Position numbers and translations under genes: made by a program. From a virus (taxonomy: Duplodnaviria; Heunggongvirae; Uroviricota; Caudoviricetes), in the IMG/VR virus record IMGVR_UViG_2585427727_000013: a DNA stretch of 15,510 bases. The stretch is one strand, 5' to 3'. Shown here in pieces: positions 3,492-15,134 of this stretch (position 1 is its first letter; the number at the start of each line of letters is the position of its first letter). The notes beneath the pieces were generated by a model that ran no database searches, was not told the origin of the DNA, and worked only from the letters and a program-made list of their open reading frames with translations.

Positions 3492-6400
3492 ATGGGTAAA
3501 GGAAGCAGTAAGGGGCATACCCCGCGCGAAGCGAAGGACAACCTGAAGTCCACGCAGTTGCTGAGTGTGATCGATGCCATCAGCGAAGGGCCGGTTGAAG
3601 GTCCGGTGGATGGATTAAAAAGCGTGCTGCTGAACAGTACGCCGGTGCTGGACACTGAGGGGAATACCAACATCTCCGGTGTCACGGTGGTGTTCCGTGC
3701 CGGTGAGCAGGAGCAGACACCGCCGGAGGGGTTTGAATCCTCCGGCTCCGAGACGGTGCTGGGTACGGAAGTGAAATATGACACGCCGATCACCCGCACC
3801 ATTACGTCTGCAAACATCGACCGTCTGCGCTTTACCTTCGGTGTACAGGCACTGGTGGAAACCACCTCAAAGGGTGACAGGAATCCGTCGGAAGTCCGTC
3901 TGCTGGTTCAGATACAACGTAACGGTGGCTGGGTGACGGAAAAAGACATCACCATTAAGGGCAAAACCACCTCGCAGTATCTGGCCTCGGTGGTGGTGGG
4001 TAGCCTGCCGCCGCGCCCGTTTAATATCCGGATGCGCAGGATGACGCCGGACAGCACCACAGACCAGCTGCAGAACAAAACGCTCTGGTCGTCATACACC
4101 GAAATCATCGATGTGAAACAGGGCTACCCGAACACGGCACTGGTCGGCGTGCAGGTGGATTCGGAGCAGTTCGGCAGCCAGCAGGTGAGCCGTAATTATC
4201 ATCTGCGCGGGCGCATTCTGCAGGTGCCGTCGAACTATAACCCGCAGACGCGGCAATACAGCGGTATCTGGGACGGAACGTTTAAACCGGCATACAGCAA
4301 CAACATGGCCTGGTGTCTGTGGGATATGCTGACCCATCCGCGCTACGGCATGGGGAAACGTCTTGGTGCGGCGGATGTGGACAAATGGGCGCTGTATGTC
4401 ATCGGCCAGTATTGCGATCAGTCAGTGCCGGATGGCTTTGGTGGCACGGAGCCGCGCATCACCTGTAATGCCTGGCTGACCACACAGCGTAAGGCGTGGG
4501 ATGTTCTCAGTGATTTCTGCTCGGCGATGCGCTGTATGCCGGTATGGAACGGGCAGACGCTGACGTTCGTGCAGGACCGGCCGTCGGATAAGGTGTGGAC
4601 CTATAACCGCAGTAATGTGGTGATGCCGGATGATGGCGCGCCGTTCCGCTACAGTTTCAGCGCCCTGAAGGACCGCCATAATGCCGTTGAGGTGAACTGG
4701 ACTGACCCGGATAACGGCTGGGAAACGGCAACAGAGCTTGTGGAGGACACGCAGGCCATTGCCCGTTATGGTCGTAATGTCACGAAGATGGATGCCTTTG
4801 GCTGTACCAGCCGGGGGCAGGCACACCGCGCCGGGCTGTGGCTGATTAAAACGGAGCTGCTGGAAACGCAGACCGTGGACTTCAGCGTGGGCGCAGAAGG
4901 GCTTCGCCATGTACCGGGCGATGTTATTGAAATCTGTGATGATGACTATGCCGGTATCAGCACCGGTGGTCGTGTGCTGGCGGTGAGCAGCCAGACCCGG
5001 ACGCTGACGCTCGACCGTGAAATCACGCTGCCATCCTCTGGCACCACGCTGATAAGCCTGGTTGACGGAAGTGGCAATCCGGTCAGCGTGCAGGTCCAGT
5101 CCGTCACCGACGGCGTGAAGGTGAAAGTGAGCCGGGTTCCTGACGGCGTTGCAGAATACAGCGTGTGGGGGCTGAAGTTGCCGACGTTGCGCCAGCGCCT
5201 GTTCCGCTGTGTGAGTATCCGTGAGAACGACGACGGCACGTATGCCATCACCGCCGTGCAGCATGTACCGGAAAAAGAAGCCATCGTGGATAACGGGGCG
5301 CACTTTGACGGCGACCAGAGTGGCACGGTGAATGGTGTCACGCCGCCAGCGGTGCAGCACCTGGCCGCAGAAGTCACTGCAGACAGCGGGGAATATCAGG
5401 TGCTGGCGCGATGGGACACACCGAAGGTGGTGAAGGGCGTGAGCTTCCTGCTCCGTCTGACCGTAACAGCGGACGACGGCAGTGAGCTGCTGGTCAGCAC
5501 GGCCCGGACGACGGAAACCACATACCGCTTCAGGCAACTGGCGCTGGGGCGTTACACGCTGACGGTCCGGGCGGTAAATGCGTGGGGGCAGCAGGGCGAT
5601 CCGGCATCGGTATCGTTCCGGATTGCGGCACCGGCAGCGCCTGTCACTATTGAACTGATACCAGGGTATTTTCAGATAACAGCGGTCCCGAAACTGGCTG
5701 TATATGACCCGACGGTGCAGTTTGAGTTCTGGTTCTCGGAAAAGCGGATTATCGATATCAGGCAGGTTGAAACCAGCGCGCGTTATCTTGGTACGGCGCT
5801 GTACTGGATAGCCGCCAGTAGCAATATTAAGCCGGGTTATGATTATTACTTTTATATCCGCAGCGTGAACACCGTTGGTAAATCGGCATTTGTGGAGGCC
5901 GTTGGTCGGGCGAGCGATGATGCGGAAGGTTATCTGAATTTTTATAAAGGGTTGATCAATAAAACGCATCTCGGCAAGGAACTGCTGGAAAACTTTGAGC
6001 TGACGGAAGATAACGCCAGCAAACTGGAGGAGTTTTCGAAAGAGTGGAAGGACGCCAACGATAAATGGAATGCCATGTGGGGCGTCAAAATTGAGCAGAC
6101 CAAAGACGGCAAACATTATGTCGCGGGGCTTGGCCTCAGCATGGAGGATACGGAGGAAGGCAAACTGAGCCAGTTCCTGGTTGCCGCTAACCGTATCGCG
6201 TTTATTGACCCGGCAAACGGGAATGAAACGCCGATGTTTGTGGCGCAGGGCAACCAGATATTCATGAACGACGTGTTCCTGAAGCGCCTGACGGCCCCCA
6301 CCATTACCAGCGGCGGTAATCCTCCGGCATTTTCCCTGACACCGGACGGGCGGCTGACGGCGAAAAATGCCGATATCAGCGGTAACGTGAATGCGAACTC

Positions 6401-6887
6401 CGGGACGCTCAACAACGTCACGATTAACGAGAACTGCCGGGTTCTGGGAAAACTGTCCGCGAACCAGATTGAAGGCGATCTCGTTAAAACAGTGGGCAAA
6501 GCTTTCCCCCGTGACTCCCGGGCACCGGAGCGGTGGCCATCAGGGACCATTACCGTCAGGGTTTATGACGATCAGCCGTTTGACCGGCAAATTGTTATTC
6601 CGGCTGTGGCATTCAGTGGCGCTAAGCATGAGAGAGAGCATACTGATATTTACTCCTCATGCCGTCTGATAGTGCGGAAAAACGGTGCTGAAATTTATAA
6701 CCGTACCGCGCTGGATAATACGCTGATTTACAGTGGCGTTATTGATATGCCTGCCGGTCACGGTCACATGACACTGGAGTTTTCGGTGTCAGCATGGCTG
6801 GTAAATGGCTGGTATCCCACAGCAAGTATCAGCGATTTGCTGGTTGTTGTGATGAAGAAAGCCACTGCAGGCATCACGATTAGCTGA
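3492..6887 (+). CDS. J: Tail tip central fibre / host specificity protein J (lambda gpJ-like, 1131 aa)
   Basis: 1131-aa ORF (lambda J is 1132 aa) in the conserved position after I. Good SD (tgaggaatg). N-terminus [34 protein letters not shown] is lambda-J-like. Confidence 0.95.
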
Positions 6888-6954: not shown

Positions 6955-7554
6955 ATGCGTAAATTATGTGCTGTTATTCTGTCCGCAGTAGTCTGGCTGG
7001 TTGCCGCTGGTACGCCAGCGAGCGCAGCAGAGCATCAGTCCACACTAAGCGCCGGGTATCTTCAGACTCATACTGATATGCCAGGCAGTGATGACCTGAA
7101 GGGCATTAACGTGAAATACCGTTATGAATTTACGGACACGCTGGGGCTGGTGACGTCATTCAGTTATGCCAATGCCAAAGATGAGCAAAAAACGCATTAC
7201 AGCGATACCCGCTGGCATGAAGATTCAGTGCGTAACCGCTGGTTCAGCATGATGGCGGGGCCATCTGTACGCGTGAATGAATGGTTCAGTGCTTATGCGA
7301 TGGCAGGTGTGGCTTACAGCCGTGTTTCGACGTTCTCCGGGGATTATCTCCGCGTAACTGACAACAAGGGGAAAACGCACGATGTGCTGACCGGAAGTGA
7401 TGACGATCGCCACAGCAACACGTCTCTGGCGTGGGGAGCTGGCGTGCAGTTTAACCCGACCGAATCCGTGGCCATTGATATTGCTTATGAAGGCTCCGGC
7501 AGTGGCGACTGGCGCACTGACGGTTTCATCGTGGGTGTCGGTTATAAGTTCTGA
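6955..7554 (+). CDS. lom: Lom-like outer-membrane beta-barrel protein (Ail/Lom/PagC family)
   Basis: 199 aa with signal peptide (MRKLCAVILSAVVWLVAAGTPASAAEH), alternating amphipathic beta-strand pattern and C-terminal GVGYKF. Lambda moron position between J and stf, bracketed by terminators. Confidence 0.9.
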   Translation: MRKLCAVILSAVVWLVAAGTPASAAEHQSTLSAGYLQTHTDMPGSDDLKGINVKYRYEFTDTLGLVTSFSYANAKDEQKTHYSDTRWHEDSVRNRWFSMMAGPSVRVNEWFSAYAMAGVAYSRVSTFSGDYLRVTDNKGKTHDVLTGSDDDRHSNTSLAWGAGVQFNPTESVAIDIAYEGSGSGDWRTDGFIVGVGYKF

Positions 7555-7608: not shown

Positions 7609-7618
7609 TGGAGTGGAT

Positions 7619-9997
7619 ATGGCAGCAGTAAAAATCTCAGGTGTGCTGAAAGATGGTGCGGGAAAACCAATACAGAACTGCACTATTCAACTGAAGGCAA
7701 AGCGTAACAGCACCACGGTACTGGTGAACACGGTGGCCTCTGAAAATCCGGATGAAGCCGGGCGTTACAGCATGGACGTTGAGTATGGTCAGTACAGCGT
7801 CATCCTGTGGATTGAGGGTTCTCAGCCATCACATGTTGGGACCATTACCGTCTATGAAGGTTCCAGTCCGGGGACGCTGAATGATTTTCTCGGTGCCATG
7901 ACGGAAGATGATGTCATGCCGGAGGCATTGCGCCGTTTTCAGGCAATGGTGGAAGAAGCGGCACGCAACGCCGAAGCCGCCTCTCAGAGCGCAGCGGCGG
8001 CAAAGAAATCCGAAACTGCAGCGGCATCATCGAAGAACGCGGCGAAAACCTCAGAAACGAATGCAGCTAATAGTGCACAGGCGGCAGCGACCTCAAAGAC
8101 TGCATCGGCAAACTCCGCGACAGCAGCCAAAAAATCAGAAACCAACGCGAAAAATAGCGAGACAGCCGCAAAGACGAGCGAAACCAACGCAAAGTCCAGC
8201 CAGACGGCAGCGAAAACCAGCGAAACGAATACCAAAGCCAGTGAAACTGCGGCGAAAAACAGCCAGGATGCAGCGGCCCAAAGCGAGAGTGCCGCAGCTG
8301 GTTCTGCAAGTGCGGCGGCTTCTTCTGCCACTGCATCAGCCAACAGTCAAAAAGCTGCAAAAACCAGCGAAACTAACGCAAAGTCCAGCCAGACGGCAGC
8401 GAAGACCAGCGAAACGAATGCCAAAGCCAGCGAAACTGCGGCGAAAAACAGTCAGGATGCAGCAGCCCAAAGCGAGAGTGCTGCAGCTGGTTCTGCAAGC
8501 GCGGCGGCTGCTTCTGCCACTGCATCAGCCAACAGTCAAAAAGCAGCAAAAACCAGTGAAACCAATGCAAAGACAAGCGAGACTGCAGCGGCGAACTCGG
8601 CGAAAGCATCGGCAGCAAGCCAGACAGCAGCTAAAGCAAGTGAAGACGCAGCCAGAGAGTATGCAAGTCAGGCAGCAGAGCCGTATAAATATGTCTTACA
8701 GCCACTGCCTGATGTGTGGATACCATTTAACGATTCACTGGATATGATTACGGGCTTTTCGCCATCTTATAAAAAGATTGTTATTGGTGACGACGAAATA
8801 ACGATGCCTGGTGACAAGGTGGTTAAGTTTAAACGCGCATCAAAAGCAACTTACATTAATAAATCTGGTGTGCTGACAGAGGCTACCATTGACGAGCCAC
8901 GATTTGAACGTGATGGCCTGCTTATTGAGGGGCAAAGAACGAACTTCTTCCCGAACAGTACAGACCCTTCGAAGTGGAATAAGTCAACTTCACTGGACGT
9001 TACAGAAACAGGCACAGATAGTTTCGGTTTTAATTATGGCCGGTTTGTCGTACAGGATTCGATTGTTGGTACAAGTAAAGCGCATACCATTATCGGACTG
9101 TATTCGAGTACCGGAGGGGTTGATACTTCAGGGGACGAAAAGTATGTAACTATATCCTGTCGGGTAAAAAGTGAAGTTGATAATATCGACGTTCGTATTT
9201 TATTTGAACATTATGATGGGGAGGTAAGGACATCAATAGGAACAGCAAGCCTGAACCTTACCACCCGCATAATTAGCAAGACAGGTCAGACAAGCCGTGT
9301 TACAGCAAGGTCTGTTAAGGATGATGCAACTGGCTGGATATTTTTTGAGGCTACATTAAAAGCAGATACAACAGAAAATACGGTTGGTGGTTTCGTCCAG
9401 TATTCTCCGGATACAGGTCAGATGGTGGCATCAGGGGATTGTCTCGATGTAACCACTCCCCAGATTGAGGCTGGTACAGGCGCATCATCTTTTATTGTTA
9501 CGGGGGCTGCACCGGTAACGCGGGCAAGCGATATAGTTACAGTCCCAATTAAGAATAATCTTTATAATCTACCTTTTACGGTTCTTTGTGAGGTACATAA
9601 GAACTGGTATAAAACGCCAAATGCAGCACCGCGTGTTTTTGATACCGGCGGTCATCAAACCGGAGCGGCTATTATTCTTGGCTTCGGTTCTTCAGCAGAT
9701 TACGACGGATTTCCTTATTGCGATATTGGTGGGGCTAACAGGCGGATAAACGAAAATGCATCGCTTGAAAAAATGGTTATGGGGATGCGTGTAAAGTCAG
9801 ATCAGTCTACATGCGCAGTAAGTAACGGGCGTATATCCAGCGAAACAAAAACCACATGGTCCTGTATTCAGAACTCCGCAATTATCCGTATTGGAGGCCA
9901 GACTACAGCCGGTTTACGCCATTTATTTGGTCATGTCAGGAATTTCAGAATATGGCACAAGGCATTGACTGATGCTCAGGTGGGGGAGTTAATCTAA
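7619..9997 (+). CDS. stf: Side tail fibre protein, mosaic: lambda-Stf-like N-terminus, Ala/Ser/Thr/Lys-rich repeat shaft, and a non-lambda AT-rich C-terminal module ending in a LamG/concanavalin-like motif
   Basis: The track ORF starts at GTG 7613, but the ATG at 7619 has an SD (ggag, 5-nt spacer) and gives MAAVKISGVLKDG..., matching the lambda Stf N-terminus. Shaft carries SETNAK-type short repeats and a 63-aa tandem duplication. C-terminus ...RIGGQTTAGLRHLFGHVRNFRIWHKALTDAQVGELI resembles the end of LamG-type domains. Confidence 0.85.
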   Translation: MAAVKISGVLKDGAGKPIQNCTIQLKAKRNSTTVLVNTVASENPDEAGRYSMDVEYGQYSVILWIEGSQPSHVGTITVYEGSSPGTLNDFLGAMTEDDVMPEALRRFQAMVEEAARNAEAASQSAAAAKKSETAAASSKNAAKTSETNAANSAQAAATSKTASANSATAAKKSETNAKNSETAAKTSETNAKSSQTAAKTSETNTKASETAAKNSQDAAAQSESAAAGSASAAASSATASANSQKAAKTSETNAKSSQTAAKTSETNAKASETAAKNSQDAAAQSESAAAGSASAAAASATASANSQKAAKTSETNAKTSETAAANSAKASAASQTAAKASEDAAREYASQAAEPYKYVLQPLPDVWIPFNDSLDMITGFSPSYKKIVIGDDEITMPGDKVVKFKRASKATYINKSGVLTEATIDEPRFERDGLLIEGQRTNFFPNSTDPSKWNKSTSLDVTETGTDSFGFNYGRFVVQDSIVGTSKAHTIIGLYSSTGGVDTSGDEKYVTISCRVKSEVDNIDVRILFEHYDGEVRTSIGTASLNLTTRIISKTGQTSRVTARSVKDDATGWIFFEATLKADTTENTVGGFVQYSPDTGQMVASGDCLDVTTPQIEAGTGASSFIVTGAAPVTRASDIVTVPIKNNLYNLPFTVLCEVHKNWYKTPNAAPRVFDTGGHQTGAAIILGFGSSADYDGFPYCDIGGANRRINENASLEKMVMGMRVKSDQSTCAVSNGRISSETKTTWSCIQNSAIIRIGGQTTAGLRHLFGHVRNFRIWHKALTDAQVGELI
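8189..8566 (+). repeat. In-frame tandem duplication inside stf: 2 x 189 bp (63 aa), near-identical
   Basis: Unit starting gcaaagtccagccagacggcagcg occurs at 8189 and again at 8378 with only a few substitutions. It explains the spurious Arg/Lys/Gln-rich ORFs in other frames. Confidence 0.9.
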
Positions 9998-10278
9998 TGA
10001 AAGATTTAACACTCAAATTTGTCGACAGGGCCGACTTTTCGGCCTTTATGGAGAGCATTGGCTATTATGATGACGAGTCGATGCAGGATGATATTCTTAT
10101 TGACGTGATAGGTAATGTGTACAAAGAAACCGGAGAACTTACTGAAGATGGCGAGCCGGTATGTGTTAAGGAGGACGGATATTTTGTAAGCGTGCGCATC
10201 ATTAATGATGCAAAAAAATCGTCAATATTCGATAAATACGCGATTGTTGTTGAGCATCAACTTCGTGGCTGGATGTGA
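9997..10278 (+). CDS. Hypothetical acidic 93-aa protein, translationally coupled to stf
   Basis: Start ATG overlaps the stf stop (TAATG). AT-rich. No motif I can recognise. Confidence 0.5.
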   Translation: MKDLTLKFVDRADFSAFMESIGYYDDESMQDDILIDVIGNVYKETGELTEDGEPVCVKEDGYFVSVRIINDAKKSSIFDKYAIVVEHQLRGWM

Positions 10279-10287
10279 GGGAGACAA

Positions 10288-10992
10288 ATGGCTACATCGA
10301 CAGTAATTCCTGATGACATCAAAACGCTAAAGGGAGATGTCAGTAAAGCCAAGGAAGATATTTCCTCAATTAACGGAAAAGTATCAACGCTTCAGACTGA
10401 TATGACCAGTGCAAAGCAGGATATCAGCTCCAGATACACAAAAACTGAAGTTGATAATAAGCTGAAAAACAAACTGGAAGTGAACGCTCTGGAAAGCGGT
10501 CGTTATGGTGGAGATTTTTACCCGCTGACTGGCCGTGAAGCGTTTTATTTGTGGGGATTGGGCACGACTACAGCGGCGGCAAACCTTTATCTTAATCCTG
10601 ACTCCGCAATTTCGTCTGTACTGCGGTCAACATCGTCTATCCGCTATAAAGATTCAGTAGAGACAATAGATTCAGAGCACGCCGATCTCATTTTCAGGAT
10701 GCGCCCTGTGTGGTACAGGTCGCAATGCGAAAATGACAGGCGTGACTGGGGATTCTACGGATTGATTGCCGAGGAAGTAGGAGAAATTGCCCCTCAGTTT
10801 GTACACTGGCGACCAGCTAACGAGAATGATGCTCCTGAAGCTATTTCCAGCAATGGCCTTGTTGCCGAAGGTGTAATGTACGAACGTCTGGTTGTTCCAC
10901 TGATTCACCATATCCAGAAACTGACTGAAAGAGTTGATGAACTTGAGTCAGAATTAAAGCTGTTATCAACTTCCCGAAGCGATATCGGATAA
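10288..10992 (+). CDS. Short fibre-like protein with a C-terminal peptidase-S74 intramolecular chaperone domain (234 aa)
   Basis: SD gagggag upstream. N-terminal heptad-like repeats (DIKTLKGDVSKAKEDISSINGKVSTLQTDMTSAKQDISS). C-terminal half matches the S74 pattern as I recall it: S-S-I-R-Y-K at the expected autocleavage site, then RPVWYR, GLIAEEVGEIAPQFV, and a terminal coiled coil (IQKLTERVDELESELKLL). Confidence 0.6.
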   Translation: MATSTVIPDDIKTLKGDVSKAKEDISSINGKVSTLQTDMTSAKQDISSRYTKTEVDNKLKNKLEVNALESGRYGGDFYPLTGREAFYLWGLGTTTAAANLYLNPDSAISSVLRSTSSIRYKDSVETIDSEHADLIFRMRPVWYRSQCENDRRDWGFYGLIAEEVGEIAPQFVHWRPANENDAPEAISSNGLVAEGVMYERLVVPLIHHIQKLTERVDELESELKLLSTSRSDIG

Positions 10993-11002
10993 AGGAGGAG
11001 TA

Positions 11003-11296
11003 ATGGATATAAGCCCCTTACTTCATGCACTTTGTGCTGTGGCTGCGCAGACACTGGTTGGTCTTTTTACCGGAAACTGGGCTTACGGAGCGATAGCCGG
11101 TTGTGCGTTCTTCATTGCGCGTGAACACACCCAGGCAGAATATCGCTGGATTGAAATGTTCGGGCATGGCAAGCGAATGAATATGCCGTGGTGGGGCGGT
11201 TTTGATCCGCGCGCGTGGGATGTGGCAAGCCTGATGGATTTTGCTGTGCCGGTGGTGGCGTGTCTGCTGGTCTGGCTGTTGGTTAATCGTGGGTGA
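11003..11296 (+). CDS. Hypothetical small membrane protein (97 aa, hydrophobic N- and C-terminal segments)
   Basis: Strong SD (aggagg). Hydrophobic stretches LLHALCAVAAQTLVGLFTGNWAYGAIAGCAFFIA and FAVPVVACLLVWLLV. Third gene of the compact cassette after stf. Confidence 0.5.
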   Translation: MDISPLLHALCAVAAQTLVGLFTGNWAYGAIAGCAFFIAREHTQAEYRWIEMFGHGKRMNMPWWGGFDPRAWDVASLMDFAVPVVACLLVWLLVNRG

Positions 11297-11306
11297 AAAA
11301 AGGTGA

Positions 11307-11435
11307 GCTGTATATGCAACGGAGGAAGAAACCTCGTTGCGGGAAGCCTGGAAGAAGTATCGGGTGTTGCTGAACCGTGTTGATACATCAACTGCACCTG
11401 ATATTGAGCGGCCTGTGAACCCTGTCAGGGAGTAA
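11307..11435 (+). pseudogene. tfa: 3' remnant of a tail fibre assembly gene (tfa): last ~40 codons only, no start
   Basis: Frame translates ...[39 protein letters not shown], matching the lambda Tfa C-terminus (...[24 protein letters not shown]...) from memory. An in-frame stop lies immediately upstream at 11304-11306. Confidence 0.6.
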
Positions 11436-11486
11436 TCATTGGGATTATGCCGCAGCACGTCTTAAGCAAGAACGTGCTGCGGTTGG
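11316..11486 (+). repeat. Direct repeat copy 1 (~170 bp): tfa 3' end plus downstream hairpin
   Basis: About 90% identical to 12365-12536 by eye. Confidence 0.85.
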
Positions 11487-11498
11487 ATGCTATTTTTT
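11450..11498 (+). terminator. Perfect 11-bp-stem hairpin with downstream T-run after the tfa remnant; possible terminator for the stf operon
   Basis: ccgcagcacgt-cttaagcaaga-acgtgctgcgg (11450-11482), then tttttt at 11493-11498. A degenerate copy lies inside repeat 2 near 12507-12536. Confidence 0.45.
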
Positions 11499-12158
11499 CC
11501 CTGAAGCGGAAAACATTACTACAGTACCTTGAACCTTGGTTTTAACATTCTCGAAATGCTCTGAGAGTATATGTGTTAAGCCTTCTTCGGAATCTTTTGT
11601 GTTTGAAAAGATGCCTTTCTGATTGTAAATGCGCATCAGTTTTTGACCGAAGCTATTGTGCACAACTCCATCGCCAAGAATTGTGGCTCCGTATAGAGTT
11701 CCATCGTCAGTTAAGGCCTGCGCCGCATTGCGTATTACACAGCTTTTTGTAGATATATTTCCAGGCAGGCAGTGAAGAAGGTAAAACATGGAAATGGAAT
11801 CAAATTGACCATGTAACGTCGCGGGATAAGGTTCAAAAACATCATGGCTAATTTTATGTTTAATTTTTGATTCCCCAGCCCTTGTAGATGCCGCGTTCAG
11901 GCTAGCTTCGTTCAAATCCATTAAAGATATCAGACTACTCTCAGGTACGTGAGTAAGGTAAAACCCAGTTCCAACACCAATATCCAGATGGTTGTTACCT
12001 AAATGTTCCAGAAAGTGTGGAAGAAGGTGTTCCTTTGTAGGACATCCCCATGCAAGCCGATTTGATACTCCCAAAACCCACCAGTCATAAAGCTTTAGGG
12101 TAAGTGGTGTGTAAATTTTAGCCCCATCATCTGTGTTTTTTTTCATTAATTTCACCAT
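11490..12158 (-). CDS. Class I SAM-dependent methyltransferase (moron), substrate unknown
   Basis: 222-aa ORF on the minus strand with SAM-binding motif I (LDIGVGTGFY) and an acidic post-motif region. Low GC relative to tail genes. An SD-supported alternative start is the fifth codon (ATG at 12146). Confidence 0.7.
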   Translation of the reverse strand: MVKLMKKNTDDGAKIYTPLTLKLYDWWVLGVSNRLAWGCPTKEHLLPHFLEHLGNNHLDIGVGTGFYLTHVPESSLISLMDLNEASLNAASTRAGESKIKHKISHDVFEPYPATLHGQFDSISMFYLLHCLPGNISTKSCVIRNAAQALTDDGTLYGATILGDGVVHNSFGQKLMRIYNQKGIFSNTKDSEEGLTHILSEHFENVKTKVQGTVVMFSASGKK

Positions 12159-12214
12159 GTTATAGTTTTATTTGTGAATTAAATCAATTACGGCGATGAA
12201 TTACAAGGGGTTAA

Positions 12215-12484
12215 ATGCTGCCGCAGCATAGCGATATTGAAATAGCCTGGTATGCTTCGATACAGCAGGAGCCGAATGGCTGGAAGACCGTCACCACACA
12301 GTTCTACATCCAGGAATTCAGTGAGCATATTGTGCCACTTCAGGATGCTGTAGATCTGGAGATCGCAACGGAGGAAGAAAACTCGTTGCTGGAAGCCTAG
12401 AGGAAGTATCGGGTGTTGCTGAACCGTGTTGATACATCAACTGCACCTGATATTGAGTGGCCTGCAAATCCTGTCAGGGAGTAA
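12215..12484 (+). pseudogene. tfa: 5'-truncated tfa fragment with an in-frame TAG (TGG to TAG) at 12398-12400
   Basis: Track ORF 12215..12400 ends ...SEHIVPLQDAVDLEIATEEENSLLEA*. The same frame continues [27 protein letters not shown] to 12484, matching the lambda Tfa C-terminus with W replaced by a stop. No Tfa N-terminal region is present. Confidence 0.65.
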
Positions 12485-12536
12485 TCATTGGGATTATGCC
12501 GCAGACACGTCGTATGCAGGAACGTGCTGCGGTTAG
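12365..12536 (+). repeat. Direct repeat copy 2 (~170 bp): tfa 3' end plus downstream imperfect hairpin
   Basis: Aligns with 11316-11486 base for base with scattered substitutions. Confidence 0.85.
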
Positions 12537-12600
12537 TTTGTGAGCTTTCGATAGTGCGAGTATTGAATGATTTCCAGCCGTTACCGATTTTACGTGCTAA

Positions 12601-12849
12601 TTAGTGAACAAACCACTCGTCAGCAGACTCCCAGGTATCTTTCAGAGTTTCCTGAACAAAAGTTTTAGCTGAATCTTTATCGGCGGTGCGCGTAACAGAA
12701 AGGCCATCGTTGCTGGTGGCTTTTACGATCACCTCTACATCGTCATAACGTTTACTGATGCGTCGGGTTAATTCTTCCTTTAACGCATCCACAGCACCGG
12801 TTGGCATTTTAGTCATTTTTTCTTTGGCTATGCAGATTTCAATACGCAT
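12601..12849 (-). CDS. dinI: DinI-like DNA-damage-inducible protein (82 aa)
   Basis: [11 protein letters not shown]...[11 protein letters not shown] has the DinI-family pattern (MRIE..IAK...GA.DAL..EL.RRI...TWESAD.WFV) as I recall it for E. coli DinI. SD agaggga. Two LexA boxes immediately upstream. Confidence 0.8.
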
Positions 12850-12910: not shown

Positions 12911-14008
12911 TCAAGAGGTCTTATTTCTGCTCTTTTGGAGCTCTTCAAAACGATTATGTAAAGATTTCGGATACAGTTCGGTATATACCTGCCATAGCAC
13001 GTTTAATGAACGATGTCCTGTAACTTGGGCGACTTCCTCAATACTAAAACCAGCCTCAAATAAGCGACTTGCCCCTTCTCTACGCAAATCATGGTATCGC
13101 AGATCTTTAATACCTAATTTGCTTCTTACCCTCTGAAATCCCGCAGTAACAGAAGTGCTGTTATATGGAAAAATGAATTCCGATTTTTGGGGCTGTCGTT
13201 GGACGATATCCCAGGCTTCCCCAAGCAAGGCTACTTTCATGTGGTTGCCTTCCTTTTTGCGTGGATCTTTCCTGTCTCTTACGAGTATAGATTTTTGTTC
13301 CTGGTCGAGATCTTCCCATCGTAACCGGCATACTTCTCCGATTCGCATACAGGACCACACAGAAAATTTGAGGATATCAACGAACGGAATTTTTGAGCAT
13401 TTATGAGTAGATCGTTGTTGAAGGCCTTCAATGAGCATGTCCAGTTCATCAGATGCTGGTCTACGATTACGACGGTTTGATTTACCAATCAAACCAAGTT
13501 TAAGTAGATATGGACGAGCGCTTTTCGCCGGGTTTGATGTGTAATTAATTCCGTATACAGGTTTAGCCGCATCCAGAACACTGCCAAGATAACTAACATC
13601 GTGGCTGACTGTTGCTGGACCTGCACCAGCGTTGTTTCTTAGCCTACAATGTTCAATTACGTCATTTTCTGTCAGTTCGGATAGTTTGATCGCGGAGATG
13701 TCACTATCCATAAGCAGTTCCAGCACATATCTTTTAGTACGACCTGCTTTACCTCCGGCATTTGAGTCATTTAAATATTTGTGTAGTAAGTCACGGACTG
13801 TAAGTCCGTCAACTGCATTTGATGATGGAATGCCATATAGATCTAATTCCATTACTTTCTGTGTACCCCATGTTTTGGCATGGGCATGTTTAGGGAATGT
13901 TTTGCTTTCCCTGTAAGTGATAACACCTTTTTCTTTGATAATCACATTACAGCGATAGCGTGGTGTGCCATCGGATTTTAGTCGTTTCTCTATGTTATAG
14001 TACGCCAT
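12911..14008 (-). CDS. int: Tyrosine-type site-specific integrase (dusA-associated integrase type)
   Basis: 365 aa with a C-terminal catalytic region carrying an HxxR box (RYHDLRREGASRLF) and ...VTGHRSLNVLWQVYTELY with the candidate nucleophile Tyr. 5' end is 88 bp from the dusA start, divergently oriented. Confidence 0.9.
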   Translation of the reverse strand: MAYYNIEKRLKSDGTPRYRCNVIIKEKGVITYRESKTFPKHAHAKTWGTQKVMELDLYGIPSSNAVDGLTVRDLLHKYLNDSNAGGKAGRTKRYVLELLMDSDISAIKLSELTENDVIEHCRLRNNAGAGPATVSHDVSYLGSVLDAAKPVYGINYTSNPAKSARPYLLKLGLIGKSNRRNRRPASDELDMLIEGLQQRSTHKCSKIPFVDILKFSVWSCMRIGEVCRLRWEDLDQEQKSILVRDRKDPRKKEGNHMKVALLGEAWDIVQRQPQKSEFIFPYNSTSVTAGFQRVRSKLGIKDLRYHDLRREGASRLFEAGFSIEEVAQVTGHRSLNVLWQVYTELYPKSLHNRFEELQKSRNKTS

Positions 14009-14028
14009 TACACGACCTCGTTATTTCG

Positions 14029-14063
14029 GGTTCCCATAAATCGTGGGAACCTGTGCGGGAACC
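14029..14063. promoter_or_regulatory. Inverted repeat ggttccca-N7-tgggaacc plus a third gggaacc half-site in the int-dusA intergenic region; candidate operator or recombinase-binding site
   Basis: Perfect 8-bp inverted repeat at 14029-14036 and 14044-14051; direct gggaacc repeat at 14057-14063. Lies in the divergent promoter region upstream of int and dusA. Confidence 0.35.
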
Positions 14064-14096
14064 TAACGCGAGAAAAATAGCCTGAAATGTTCAAAA

Positions 14097-15134
14097 ATGC
14101 ACGATAATCCTGAAACACAGAAAACTAATCAAACCAGCGTGATGCCTGAGAAAACTGACGCTTACGGGAGCTCTCGGTTTAGCATTGCTCCTATGCTCGA
14201 CTGGACGGACAGACATTGCCGCTATTTCTTGCGTCTGCTTTCCCGCAATACGTTGCTGTATACCGAAATGGTGACCACAGGGGCGATTATTCACGGTAAA
14301 GGTGATTATCTGGCGTACAGTGAAGAAGAACATCCGGTAGCGTTGCAACTCGGCGGTAGCGATCCGGCGGCGCTGGCGCAGTGTGCGAAGCTGGCAGAAG
14401 CGCGCGGATATGATGAGATCAACCTGAATGTCGGCTGCCCGTCTGACCGGGTGCAGAACGGCATGTTTGGGGCGTGTCTGATGGGTAATGCGCAGCTGGT
14501 TGCCGACTGCGTGAAAGCGATGCGCGATGTGGTGTCGATTCCGGTGACGGTGAAAACGCGTATTGGAATCGATGACCAGGACAGCTATGAATTTCTCTGC
14601 GATTTCATCAACACCGTTTCCGGCAAAGGCGAGTGTGAGATGTTCATCATCCACGCACGTAAAGCCTGGCTTTCTGGGTTAAGCCCGAAAGAAAACCGTG
14701 AAATCCCGCCGCTCGATTATCCGCGTGTGTATCAACTGAAGCGTGACTTTCCGCATCTGACGATGTCGATTAACGGTGGCATCAAGTCGCTGGAAGAGGC
14801 TAAAGCGCATTTGCAACATATGGATGGCGTGATGGTCGGGCGCGAAGCGTATCAGAATCCAGGCATTCTGGCGGCGGTAGACCGAGAGATCTTTGGTTCT
14901 TCGGATACCGATGCCGATCCGGTGGCGGTGGTGCGTGCCATGTATCCGTACATTGAGCGTGAACTCAGCCAGGGGACGTATCTCGGCCATATTACCCGGC
15001 ATATGCTGGGCTTGTTCCAGGGTATTCCTGGCGCGCGGCAGTGGCGGCGTTATTTAAGTGAAAATGCCCATAAAGCGGGTGCTGACATTAACGTGCTGGA
15101 ACACGCGCTCAAACTGGTGGCAGATAAGCGTTAA
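14097..15134 (+). CDS. dusA: tRNA-dihydrouridine synthase A
   Basis: 345-aa Dus-family protein with the catalytic-Cys motif ([21 protein letters not shown]). Followed by pspG, as in the E. coli chromosome. Confidence 0.9.

Follow-up and report, generated by a model that had tools for sequence, protein, structure and literature searches.

We find that Stf and the products of the two genes downstream of it, orf93 and orf234, probably make up a two-part side tail fibre with a proximal and a distal component, and that the third gene, orf97, is cargo separate from it. This reading draws on homology, synteny, distribution and domain content. The window, i.e. the whole stretch of 15,510 nucleotides analysed, comes from an E. 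coli lambdoid prophage integrated at dusA, of which it forms the right arm. The original prediction had regarded orf93, orf234 and orf97 as a compact AT-rich three-gene cassette replacing tfa, and as a candidate novel accessory system. The three genes are neither one system nor novel as a unit. Features are listed in Table 1.

Table 1. Position and basis of assignment of the features discussed (window coordinates).
Feature	Position	Strand	Basis
stf, proximal side tail fibre, 794 aa	7613..9997	+	PF08400, phrog_1419 and PDB 9e7m matches
Stf C-terminal module, ~430 aa	8708..9994	+	low GC; NF048003; lateral-fibre homology
orf93, 93 aa	9997-10278	+	small acidic gene in the Tfa slot
orf234, probable short distal fibre subunit, 234 aa	10288-10992	+	PF13884, phrog_3299 and LtfA matches
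orf234 putative N-terminal docking peptide, residues 1-32, MATSTVIPDDIKTLK...	10288..10383	+	conserved across alleles
orf234 S74 intramolecular chaperone domain, residues 116-234	10633..10992	+	Pfam profile start at residue 116
orf97, three-helix inner-membrane protein, 97 aa	11003-11296	+	phrog_1443, AF2 model
Tfa C-terminal remnant, pseudogene	11316-11435	+	translation; RefSeq annotation
Strong hairpin, then U-rich tract	11449..11483	+	folding energy

Setting and extent of the low-GC block

Much of the original description of the trio was confirmed. The same three CDS are called in the NCBI annotation of a 100% identical genome, the first product is acidic (pI 4.31, with 20 D+E against 10 K+R), orf234 carries an S74 domain, orf97 is a membrane protein, and none of the three resembles Tfa. 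The packing is indeed tight: the stf stop codon overlaps the orf93 start in the sequence TAATG, and gaps of 9 nt between orf93 and orf234 (GGGAGACAA) and of 10 nt between orf234 and orf97 (AGGAGGAGTA) each carry a Shine-Dalgarno sequence. The cassette is no rarity: of 5426 complete E. coli genomes, 664 contain at least 80% of positions 9700-11500; taken singly, orf93 is carried by 985 of the 5426, orf234 by 740 and orf97 by 1868 (34%).

The AT-rich label suits orf93 (GC 0.41) and orf234 (0.45), but not orf97 (0.544), and it left out the C-terminal half of stf (8711-9997), which has a GC of 0.44 compared with 0.54 for the N-terminal half. GC falls within stf, at ~8710, and rises again at orf97, whose value resembles that of the tail block. 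Based on these values, the low-GC unit ends at 10992 and consists of the C-terminal 430 aa of Stf, orf93 and orf234, without orf97. It would be a horizontally exchanged module that took the place of the lambda-type Stf tip and of most of tfa. That tfa was replaced is confirmed by a feature overlooked in the original prediction: a Tfa C-terminal remnant of 39 codons adjoins orf97 downstream, and the identical RefSeq record labels it 'tail fiber assembly protein, incomplete, missing N-terminus'. The hairpin beyond it (−28.3 kcal/mol, z −5.2 relative to shuffles), missed by a consensus terminator scan, is the probable terminator of the late/fibre transcript. A consensus scan for + strand promoters between 9500 and 12700 found none.

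Stf and orf93 in virulent and temperate phages

In Stf, a virion-attachment domain at the N terminus is followed by a shaft of Ala/Ser-rich repeats and by a C-terminal module that can be exchanged. The attachment domain is recognised by PF08400 (phage_tail_N, residues 5-134, E 9e-64) and by the 'Tail fiber protein' of PDB 9e7m (residues 5-97, E 1.5e-46), while phrog_1419 matches the full length; positions 8164-8590 contain a 189-nt tandem repeat. In the C-terminal module, a GTA-head-spike-fibre-like domain (NF048003, residues 437-638, E 6e-19) is followed by a terminal ConA/galectin-like domain; Laminin_G_3 matches the module weakly (E 0.0018, below cut-off). The N-terminal domain would hold Stf on the tail, with the lectin-like domain at the far end. 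Compared to the lambda Stf-Tfa system, the attachment domain (PF08400; PDB 9e7m) and the genomic slot after lom are shared, and the Tfa position is again filled by a small gene that is coupled to the stop of the fibre gene, but the C-terminal tip is unrelated and orf93 has no similarity to Tfa.

Lateral fibres in 205 phage records, from T1-like, Dhillonvirus, Queuovirinae, T5-like, rV5-like and lambdoid phages, have a C-terminal end related to the Stf C-terminal module (37-86% identity). An orf93-type gene is present in 179 records, always adjacent to this module. The order Stf-C then small ORF was found in the virulent phages PeterMerian, KarlBarth, EC100, IrisVonRoten and EmilHeitz (rV5-like), and in the lambdoid 2G7b, PhiR49_1 and phage 21, with a distal fibre gene next in all except phage 21 and EmilHeitz. 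The full order, distal gene included, occurs in virulent T1-like, Dhillonvirus, Queuovirinae and T5-like phages. As phage 21 and EmilHeitz have Stf-C and the small ORF without a distal fibre, orf93 belongs with Stf rather than with the distal fibre. In the rV5-type locus, rV5 gp41 ends in an S74 chaperone instead, with no small ORF, and therefore the small ORF alternates with a known chaperone solution. No similarity of orf93 to Tfa, or to a chaperone of solved structure, was detected. orf93 is probably a dedicated partner of the Stf C-terminal domain, a chaperone or a cap in the Tfa slot; translationally coupled to stf, it would most likely help that domain to fold or assemble, or cover it, in the role Tfa plays for lambda-type tips.

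The closest parallels are in virulent phages. In PeterMerian (Bas05, T1-like Drexlerviridae, genes 0031-0029; PMC8594841), the C-terminal 530 aa of the lateral tail fibre are 54% identical to Stf, the 92-aa ORF is 46% identical to orf93 and a 231-aa S74 protein, shared by virulent T1-like phages, is 57% identical to orf234, with the order and couplings of the window. The T1-like Drexlerviridae differ in being virulent, in their N-terminal anchor and in having no orf97-type gene downstream. In the T5-like IrisVonRoten (Bas32), Gp22-Gp23-Gp24 are the matching genes in the same order: identity is 53% for Stf-C (52.6% between Gp22 and Stf residues 133-794) and 36% between Gp23 and orf93, and Gp24 has an N-terminal peptide and a C-terminal S74 IMC as in orf234. 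PMC11990801 describes Gp24 as a T-shaped distal fibre and presents an AlphaFold-Multimer model of it, with its IMC, on a proximal fibre with a terminal galectin-like domain; that partner is Gp22 in the legend and Gp23 in the text. These passages do not take up the small Gp23-type protein. The window phage differs in being a temperate lambdoid, so that its N-terminal attachment domain is of the lambda type, and its orf234 is only 234 aa long (115 aa in the predicted mature form), without Gp12-like or T5-like dual binding domains. AKFV33 is more distant than the other relatives. Its ltpA product (ORF137), detected in virions by mass spectrometry (PMC3326045), is homologous to the Stf C-terminal module (36.7% identity), and the numbering leaves one ORF (136) before the second fibre protein, ltpB (ORF135), but no orf93 homologue was found there above the tblastn threshold used.

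In sum, the idea of a receptor-binding accessory set holds for orf93 and orf234, which are conserved lateral fibre parts of virulent and temperate phages, and fails for orf97, which lies outside the fibre unit. Novelty was not borne out either: a known phage genus has orf93 and orf234 among its core structural genes, their order being conserved in Drexlerviridae, Tequintavirus and others.

orf234 as a candidate distal fibre

Peptidase_S74 (PF13884) matches orf234 residues 116-172 with 27.1 bits, for a Pfam cut-off of 22. The protein also aligns to C-terminal positions 1147-1384 of phrog_3299 and to several tail-fibre PHROGs, and it matches the shaft repeat (orf234 residues 20-65) and the C-terminal domain of DT57C LtfA (PDB 8hqz_d). 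We propose that it comprises a putative docking peptide, shaft repeats, a small tip and a presumably self-cleaving S74 chaperone domain. The cut is predicted, from sequence, before Ser116, with Lys121 as partner: SSIRYK aligns with SGIEYK in DT57C LtfA, SDRDLK in the 2G7b allele and SSSRYK in the PeterMerian allele. Like the S74 domains of T5 pb1, DT57C LtfA/LtfB and K1F endosialidase (PMC4728585; PDB 8hqz), that of orf234 scores above the PF13884 cut-off, has the Ser...Lys motif at its start and is C-terminal to a repeat shaft. It differs in belonging to a very short stand-alone protein, compared with fibres of more than 1000 aa, and in that its cleavage is a prediction.

The first 32 residues are conserved between otherwise unrelated distal genes and would serve as a joint. 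The 345-aa allele of 2G7b, otherwise unrelated to orf234, shares with it only residues 1-32 (72% over 32 aa) and the S74 end, between flanking genes that are 83% (Stf), 88% (orf93) and 95% (orf97) identical to those of the window. The same motif opens the distal fibres of PeterMerian, EC100, KarlBarth and IrisVonRoten, the match to Gp24 of the last being weak (39% over 28 aa, E 0.007). According to our model, orf234 would trimerise by means of its own S74 chaperone, which would then cut itself off before Ser116; the resulting 115-residue short fibre would dock on the end of Stf by the conserved N-terminal peptide and supply a second, exchangeable binding specificity. A mature product of 115 residues is small for a receptor-binding fibre.

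Could orf234 rather be a chaperone acting in trans on Stf, or a helper that does not remain part of the virion? The names given to its homologues, 'putative lateral tail fiber chaperone' (used by the BASEL annotators for the T1-like one) or 'chaperone of endosialidase', speak for it, as do the S74 domain filling half of the protein and the shortness of the mature part. Nevertheless we consider this unlikely. S74 domains are intramolecular chaperones of their own polypeptide (PMC4728585), and residues 20-65 resemble LtfA fibre shaft repeats. Phage 21 and EmilHeitz have Stf-C fibres and no orf234-type gene, which means that Stf does not need it. Finally, the unrelated 345-aa allele takes its place next to an unchanged Stf, as expected of a specificity module and not of a cognate chaperone.

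orf97 and the remaining alternatives

orf97 has an AF2 model of pLDDT 92 with three long hydrophobic helices (4-23, 26-53 and 74-96), matches phrog_1443 (function unknown), and has an invariant core, AREHTQAEYRWI...MPWWGGFD. It is a moron, the member of a stand-alone bacterial membrane protein family often found on temperate phages, and lies outside the fibre module. Chromosomal, non-phage relatives occur in several proteobacterial genera, in housekeeping neighbourhoods in Aeromonas and sphingomonads. Small membrane-protein morons are known in temperate phages, an example being HK97 gp15, which acts in superinfection exclusion. The resemblance is that orf97, too, is a small inner-membrane protein in or at the end of tail genes, and in temperate phages only; orf97 differs in its chromosomal relatives. 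Tight coupling of orf97 to fibre genes is seen in several phages. As separate cargo, orf97 is a copy, carried by the phage, of a three-helix inner-membrane protein conserved in bacteria. It would be transcribed last in the fibre operon and probably modifies host envelope physiology or phage susceptibility; a role in lysogen benefit or exclusion may apply to orf97 alone.

It is very improbable that orf97 has a function within the fibre system, e.g. as a membrane-anchored assembly factor or an S74-linked factor. Its start 10 nt after orf234, behind a strong Shine-Dalgarno, would fit, as would the P2/HP1-like prophages of Leclercia and Aeromonas, where a homologue and the tail fibre gene before it overlap at the fibre stop codon, the Leclercia fibre having an S74 end. 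However, orf97 was absent from all the virulent carriers of Stf-C, orf93 and an S74 tip examined, its GC is unlike that of the fibre module, and it also follows unrelated fibres and tailspikes, such as a pectate-lyase-type tailspike without S74 in phiv142-3. Among 35 upstream neighbours of its relatives in other species, just 3 had S74 and 1 was a tailspike; the remainder include ligA, DAHP synthase, pirin and PNPase. In phage 21, CPT_21_22/23/24 (side tail fibre, hypothetical protein, putative membrane protein) are 44% identical to Stf, 51% (a 92-aa ORF) to orf93 and 98% to orf97, the last directly after the 92-aa gene with no distal S74 gene between them. Therefore orf97 and the distal fibre are add-ons that do not depend on each other.

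We give hardly any credence to orf234 being a functionless, decaying fragment left by recombination with a ~1385-aa fibre gene. The whole protein does align within the phrog_3299 profile, to the C-terminal 240 of its 1385 positions, but its ORF is intact, with its own Shine-Dalgarno and start codon, its dN/dS is 0.14 (compared with PhiR49_1), and 47 phage records, most of them virulent T1-like genomes, retain the stand-alone size of ~231 aa, in addition to the E. coli genomes counted above.

The further suggestion of a prophage superinfection-exclusion or anti-phage defence cassette at a fibre/att hotspot is scarcely tenable: the trio does lie between tail fibre genes and the integration junction, near other cargo (a ybcY-like methyltransferase and dinI), and 2 of its 3 proteins have no annotated function, but none matched in PADLOC, strictly virulent phages carry orf93 and orf234 in lateral fibre loci in unchanged order, and neither composition nor distribution among the E. 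coli genomes is common to the three genes.

Organisation and history of the fibre locus

The three small genes that follow stf, the gene of the side tail fibre, lie where the original prediction had placed them, and NCBI calls the same three on an E. coli chromosome that is 100% identical. orf93 begins inside the stf stop codon (TAATG), and gaps of 9 nt (GGGAGACAA) and 10 nt (AGGAGGAGTA) separate orf93 from orf234 and orf234 from orf97. The S74 domain of the 234-aa product, the acidic character of the 93-aa product and the helical character of the 97-aa product were recovered as well. What did not hold is the description of these genes as an AT-rich three-gene cassette. The low-GC block starts at ~8710, inside stf, and runs to orf234 (GC of 0.44 in the C-terminal half of stf, 0.41 in orf93 and 0.45 in orf234), whereas orf97, at 0.544, has the GC of tail genes. 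We conclude that the true module is made of the Stf C-terminus, orf93 and orf234, and that this unit is a two-part lateral tail fibre of an already known kind.

Features of the prophage right arm
Feature	Position	Remarks
J	3492-6887	
lom	6955-7554	
stf	7613-9997	
orf93	9997-10278	93 aa
orf234	10288-10992	234 aa
orf97	11003-11296	97 aa
tfa remnant	11316-11435	39 C-terminal codons, directly downstream of orf97
Terminator hairpin	11449-11483	15 bp, -28.3 kcal/mol, z -5.2, followed by a U-rich tract
ybcY-like class I SAM methyltransferase	11490-12158	minus strand, then second tfa remnant
dinI	12601-12849	
Integrase	12911-14008	then dusA and pspG

The window corresponds to the right arm of a lambdoid prophage whose insertion site is dusA. 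That the small genes replace tfa, which encodes the lambda-type fibre assembly chaperone, was correctly predicted, and the tfa remnant, overlooked at the time, confirms it. The low-GC module and orf97 took the place of a lambda-type Stf tip and of the N-terminal portion of tfa, whose tail was left behind. At least 80% of the 9700-11500 segment is present in 664 of the 5426 complete E. coli genomes.

A strong hairpin and the U-rich tract behind it close the fibre transcript; a consensus terminator scan missed them. The hairpin stands in the interval that separates the tfa remnant from the methyltransferase gene, which is convergent, and it probably terminates transcription in both directions. 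A direct repeat of ~170 nt, 94% identical (11316-11484 and 12365-12534), consists of the tfa 3′ end and the terminator hairpin, so that the methyltransferase gene is flanked by two copies of this segment. The tfaD-ybcY-tfaX segment of the DLP12 prophage in E. coli K-12 is arranged in this way. In the lambdoid phage 21 (L011, 5386-8835), the position behind the orf97 homologue is taken by a sitABCD iron/manganese transporter and not by the methyltransferase, which illustrates a turnover of cargo immediately 3′ of orf97. On the other side of dinI, 88 nt separate the tyrosine integrase gene from the 5′ end of dusA (12911-15134). Transcription of the integrase gene runs away from dusA, and the prophage attachment site is therefore the dusA 5′ end.

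Upstream of the low-GC block, stf contains a 189-nt tandem repeat (8164-8590, 2.3 copies, 91% match) encoding an Ala/Ser/Thr/Lys-rich shaft (AAKTSETNAK...). A strong AT skew, of up to 0.6, goes with the repeat, which also yields long spurious ORFs in the other frames and on the opposite strand.

The Stf C-terminal module and its small neighbour

The last 430 residues of Stf (Stf-C) have counterparts, at 37-86% identity, at the C-termini of lateral or side tail fibres from 205 phage records. These records belong to virulent T1-like phages (Drexlerviridae), Dhillonvirus, Queuovirinae, T5-like and rV5-like phages, and also to lambdoid phages. Stf-C holds a GTA-head-spike-fibre-like domain (NF048003). 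A close layout to compare with is that of the T5-like phage IrisVonRoten, whose proximal fibre Gp22 is 52.6% identical to Stf and ends in a homologous module of ~430 aa; it is followed by Gp23, a small ORF overlapping the proximal-fibre stop codon, 36% identical to orf93. The C-terminal domain of this proximal fibre is called 'galectin-like' in the passages of PMC11990801 that describe it, and the weak ConA/Laminin_G_3-type signal detected at the end of Stf agrees with this.

Homologues of the acidic orf93 product (pI 4.31) were found in 179 phage records from six groups: T1-like, Dhillonvirus, Queuovirinae, T5-like, rV5-like and lambdoid. In every record inspected, the homologue starts at, or overlaps, the stop codon of a Stf-C-type fibre gene. 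Such coupling of a small gene to a fibre gene, here by the TAATG overlap, is shared with tfa as a feature of position only: the protein has neither sequence nor fold similarity to Tfa/gpU-type chaperones. Its identity tracks that of Stf-C across the four phages compared.

Identity of Stf (BLASTP against the window) paired with that of the orf93 homologue
Phage	Stf	orf93 homologue
2G7b	83%	88%
PeterMerian	54%	46%
IrisVonRoten	53%	36%
EC100	40%	36%

Phage 21 and the rV5-like phage EmilHeitz both possess Stf-C and the small ORF while lacking a distal fibre gene, which means that orf93 belongs to the Stf end and not to the distal fibre. A comparison within the rV5-type locus is also informative. 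In rV5 itself (L089, gp41-gp40), the last part of gp41 is an S74 intramolecular chaperone, with no small ORF behind it. EmilHeitz (L013, bas49_0026-0028) has in this place a Stf-type C-terminal domain together with a 110-aa orf93 homologue. These two loci represent a natural swap of chaperone solutions. In lambda-type fibres, it is tfa that occupies the slot taken here by orf93. Because the small ORF alternates with both known chaperone solutions, S74 and Tfa, we read orf93 as most likely a dedicated chaperone, or a small cap, of Stf-C.

The fold predicted for orf93 is a small alpha/beta sandwich (pLDDT 79), for which no informative structural neighbour was found; PDB sequence searches gave only chance-level matches for orf93, as for orf97. 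Virion proteomics of rV5 was considered as a test of a structural role of orf93 and set aside, as rV5 has no orf93 homologue, its gp41 ending in an S74 domain. In the proteomic study of phage AKFV33, four gel bands only were analysed (PMC3326045), and our literature search found no paper dealing with the small ORFs.

orf234 as a probable short distal fibre

The orf234 product matches PF13884 (Peptidase_S74) with 27.1 bits, for a cut-off of 22, over residues 116-172 (profile positions 1-57 of 58). The Ser/Lys dyad is present: S116-S-I-R-Y-K121 covers profile positions 1-6, with Lys121 five residues after Ser116. This motif aligns with SGIEYK of LtfA from phage DT57C, and its equivalents are SDRDLK in 2G7b and SSSRYK in the virulent T1-like phage PeterMerian. 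The S74 domain is C-terminal in orf234, and several tail-fibre PHROGs match the protein. The similarity to LtfA extends further, as residues 20-65 match its shaft repeat and residues 105-221 its C-terminal chaperone domain (PDB 8hqz).

Between the window and the lambdoid phage 2G7b, Stf, orf93 and orf97 (the latter at 95%) are conserved on both sides of a middle gene that differs, encoding 234 aa in the window versus 345 aa in 2G7b. Only the first 32 residues (72% identity) and the S74 end are common to the two products. The N-terminal part carries a motif, M[AV]TxTxIPxDIxxLK, present at the start of orf234 and 2G7b_345 and of the distal fibres of PeterMerian (PM_231), EC100 (EC100_576), KarlBarth (KB_98) and IrisVonRoten (Gp24), the pairwise match between orf234 and Gp24 being weak (E of 0.007). 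Both marks of the distal half of a two-part fibre, the putative docking peptide and the intramolecular chaperone end, are thus found in orf234. In the part of PMC11990801 concerned with IrisVonRoten, a multimer model (AlphaFold-Multimer) has the distal Gp24 attached to the proximal fibre.

The simplest reading is that orf234 is a short, exchangeable distal fibre. It would dock through its conserved N-terminal peptide, fold with its own intramolecular S74 chaperone, and then release that domain by a predicted cleavage. Some homologue annotations name genes of this type a chaperone, which would make orf234 a chaperone acting in trans. This fits less well, because Stf-type fibres exist without orf234, and because orf234 is swapped while Stf stays unchanged. 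In 47 phage records, mostly from virulent T1-like phages, and in 740 E. coli genomes, the gene persists as a stand-alone form of 231 aa, and the dN/dS of orf234 is 0.14.

On this reading, the layout of one of the commonest types of E. coli prophage side tail fibre is settled: the proximal part ends in a lectin-like domain, a small protein is dedicated to it, and a short distal fibre, which can be swapped or missing, would complete it. Host-range engineering and the annotation of prophages could use position ~8710 in stf, the 32-residue docking peptide and the predicted S74 cut site as cut points.

orf97, a separate cargo gene

The genes had also been proposed to be a receptor-binding accessory set, or else a defence or novel system. 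The first proposal stands for orf93 and orf234, but orf97 is separate cargo. The second fell: no match to orf93, orf234 or orf97 was found in PADLOC-DB (E <= 0.01), NCBIfam returned nothing for the three, and the cassette adds no new defence system. Overall, the initial observation was largely correct and its interpretation partly supported. Both orf93 (about 180 phage genomes) and orf97 (1868 of 5426 complete E. coli genomes, or 34%, a single genome matching in as many as 7 places) are very common 'hypothetical proteins'.

Three long hydrophobic helices are predicted in orf97 with high confidence. Its central segment, AREHTQAEYRWI...MPWWGGFD, is nearly invariant and would be cytoplasmic by the positive-inside rule. 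None of the virulent phages with the fibre module has the gene. Copies of ~80-98% identity are found in temperate settings that are lambdoid, epsilon15-like or P22-like. In lambdoid phages orf97 is present irrespective of the distal fibre (98% identity in phage 21), in an epsilon15-like phage it follows a pectate-lyase-type tailspike gene, and in a P22-like phage it lies beside an O-acetylase gene and the integrase gene. A more distant relative (63-68%) follows the tail fibre gene of P2/HP1-like prophages in Leclercia and Aeromonas. In the broadest view of the family, it has been captured time and again by temperate phages from four lineages (lambdoid, P2/HP1-like, P22-like and epsilon15-like), each time immediately 3′ of the host-recognition gene.

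A profile search of 1.84 billion representative proteins with the orf97 family gave 444 relatives. The 150 among the matches listed were all stand-alone proteins of 58-146 aa, with no fusion to a known domain. In one-genome-per-species data, relatives occur in gamma-, beta- and alphaproteobacteria and in Desulfovibrio, and they are chromosomal in Aeromonas, Comamonas and sphingomonads. When 35 upstream neighbours were scanned, 3 had an S74 domain and 1 was a tailspike, the others including ligA, DAHP synthase, pirin and PNPase. Pirin adjoins the gene in several Aeromonas species (L024, L031, L033), and ligA, DAHP synthase and PNPase lie upstream in other genera. These conserved non-phage neighbourhoods suggest a cellular origin of the family. 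Given its absence in virulent carriers, its varied temperate settings and the housekeeping neighbours of its relatives, we treat orf97 as a moron, that is, a small membrane protein of cellular origin which temperate phages have repeatedly picked up at the ends of host-recognition operons.

As to its role, orf97 receives no functional annotation from PHROG, Pfam or NCBIfam, and no fold or family match provides a function: Pfam had no match at E <= 0.01 (a sub-threshold PhoR match only at E <= 1), and Foldseek against BFVD none at E <= 0.001. Our best guess, made with low confidence, is a benefit to the lysogen by envelope modification or exclusion. It seems rather unlikely to us that orf97 stands for an uncharacterised family of three-helix inner-membrane proteins that target a conserved process of the envelope and bring about lysogenic conversion or superinfection exclusion in a new way, with orf93 as a third class of fibre chaperone besides the Tfa-type and S74 ones. 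The gene is translationally coupled to the late genes. A promoter scan of 9500-12700 found no sigma-70 site on the + strand, hence none upstream of orf97, so that independent expression is unsupported. A link of orf97 to the S74 domain, raised by a P2-like prophage of Leclercia, was dropped after phage 21, phiv142-3 and the 35 neighbourhoods had been considered. A holin was rejected as well, as the window contains no lysis genes and relatives are often beside housekeeping genes; in phiv142-3, a separate annotated holin gene lies downstream.

Sequences near-identical to the E. coli-type fibre module or to orf97 also occur in the records OR847733, OR848352, OR849447 ('Listeria phage') and MG0656xx ('Campylobacter phage'), and in a Collinsella MAG contig (L022). 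These Listeria and Campylobacter phage records and the Collinsella contig are probably mislabelled or contaminated.
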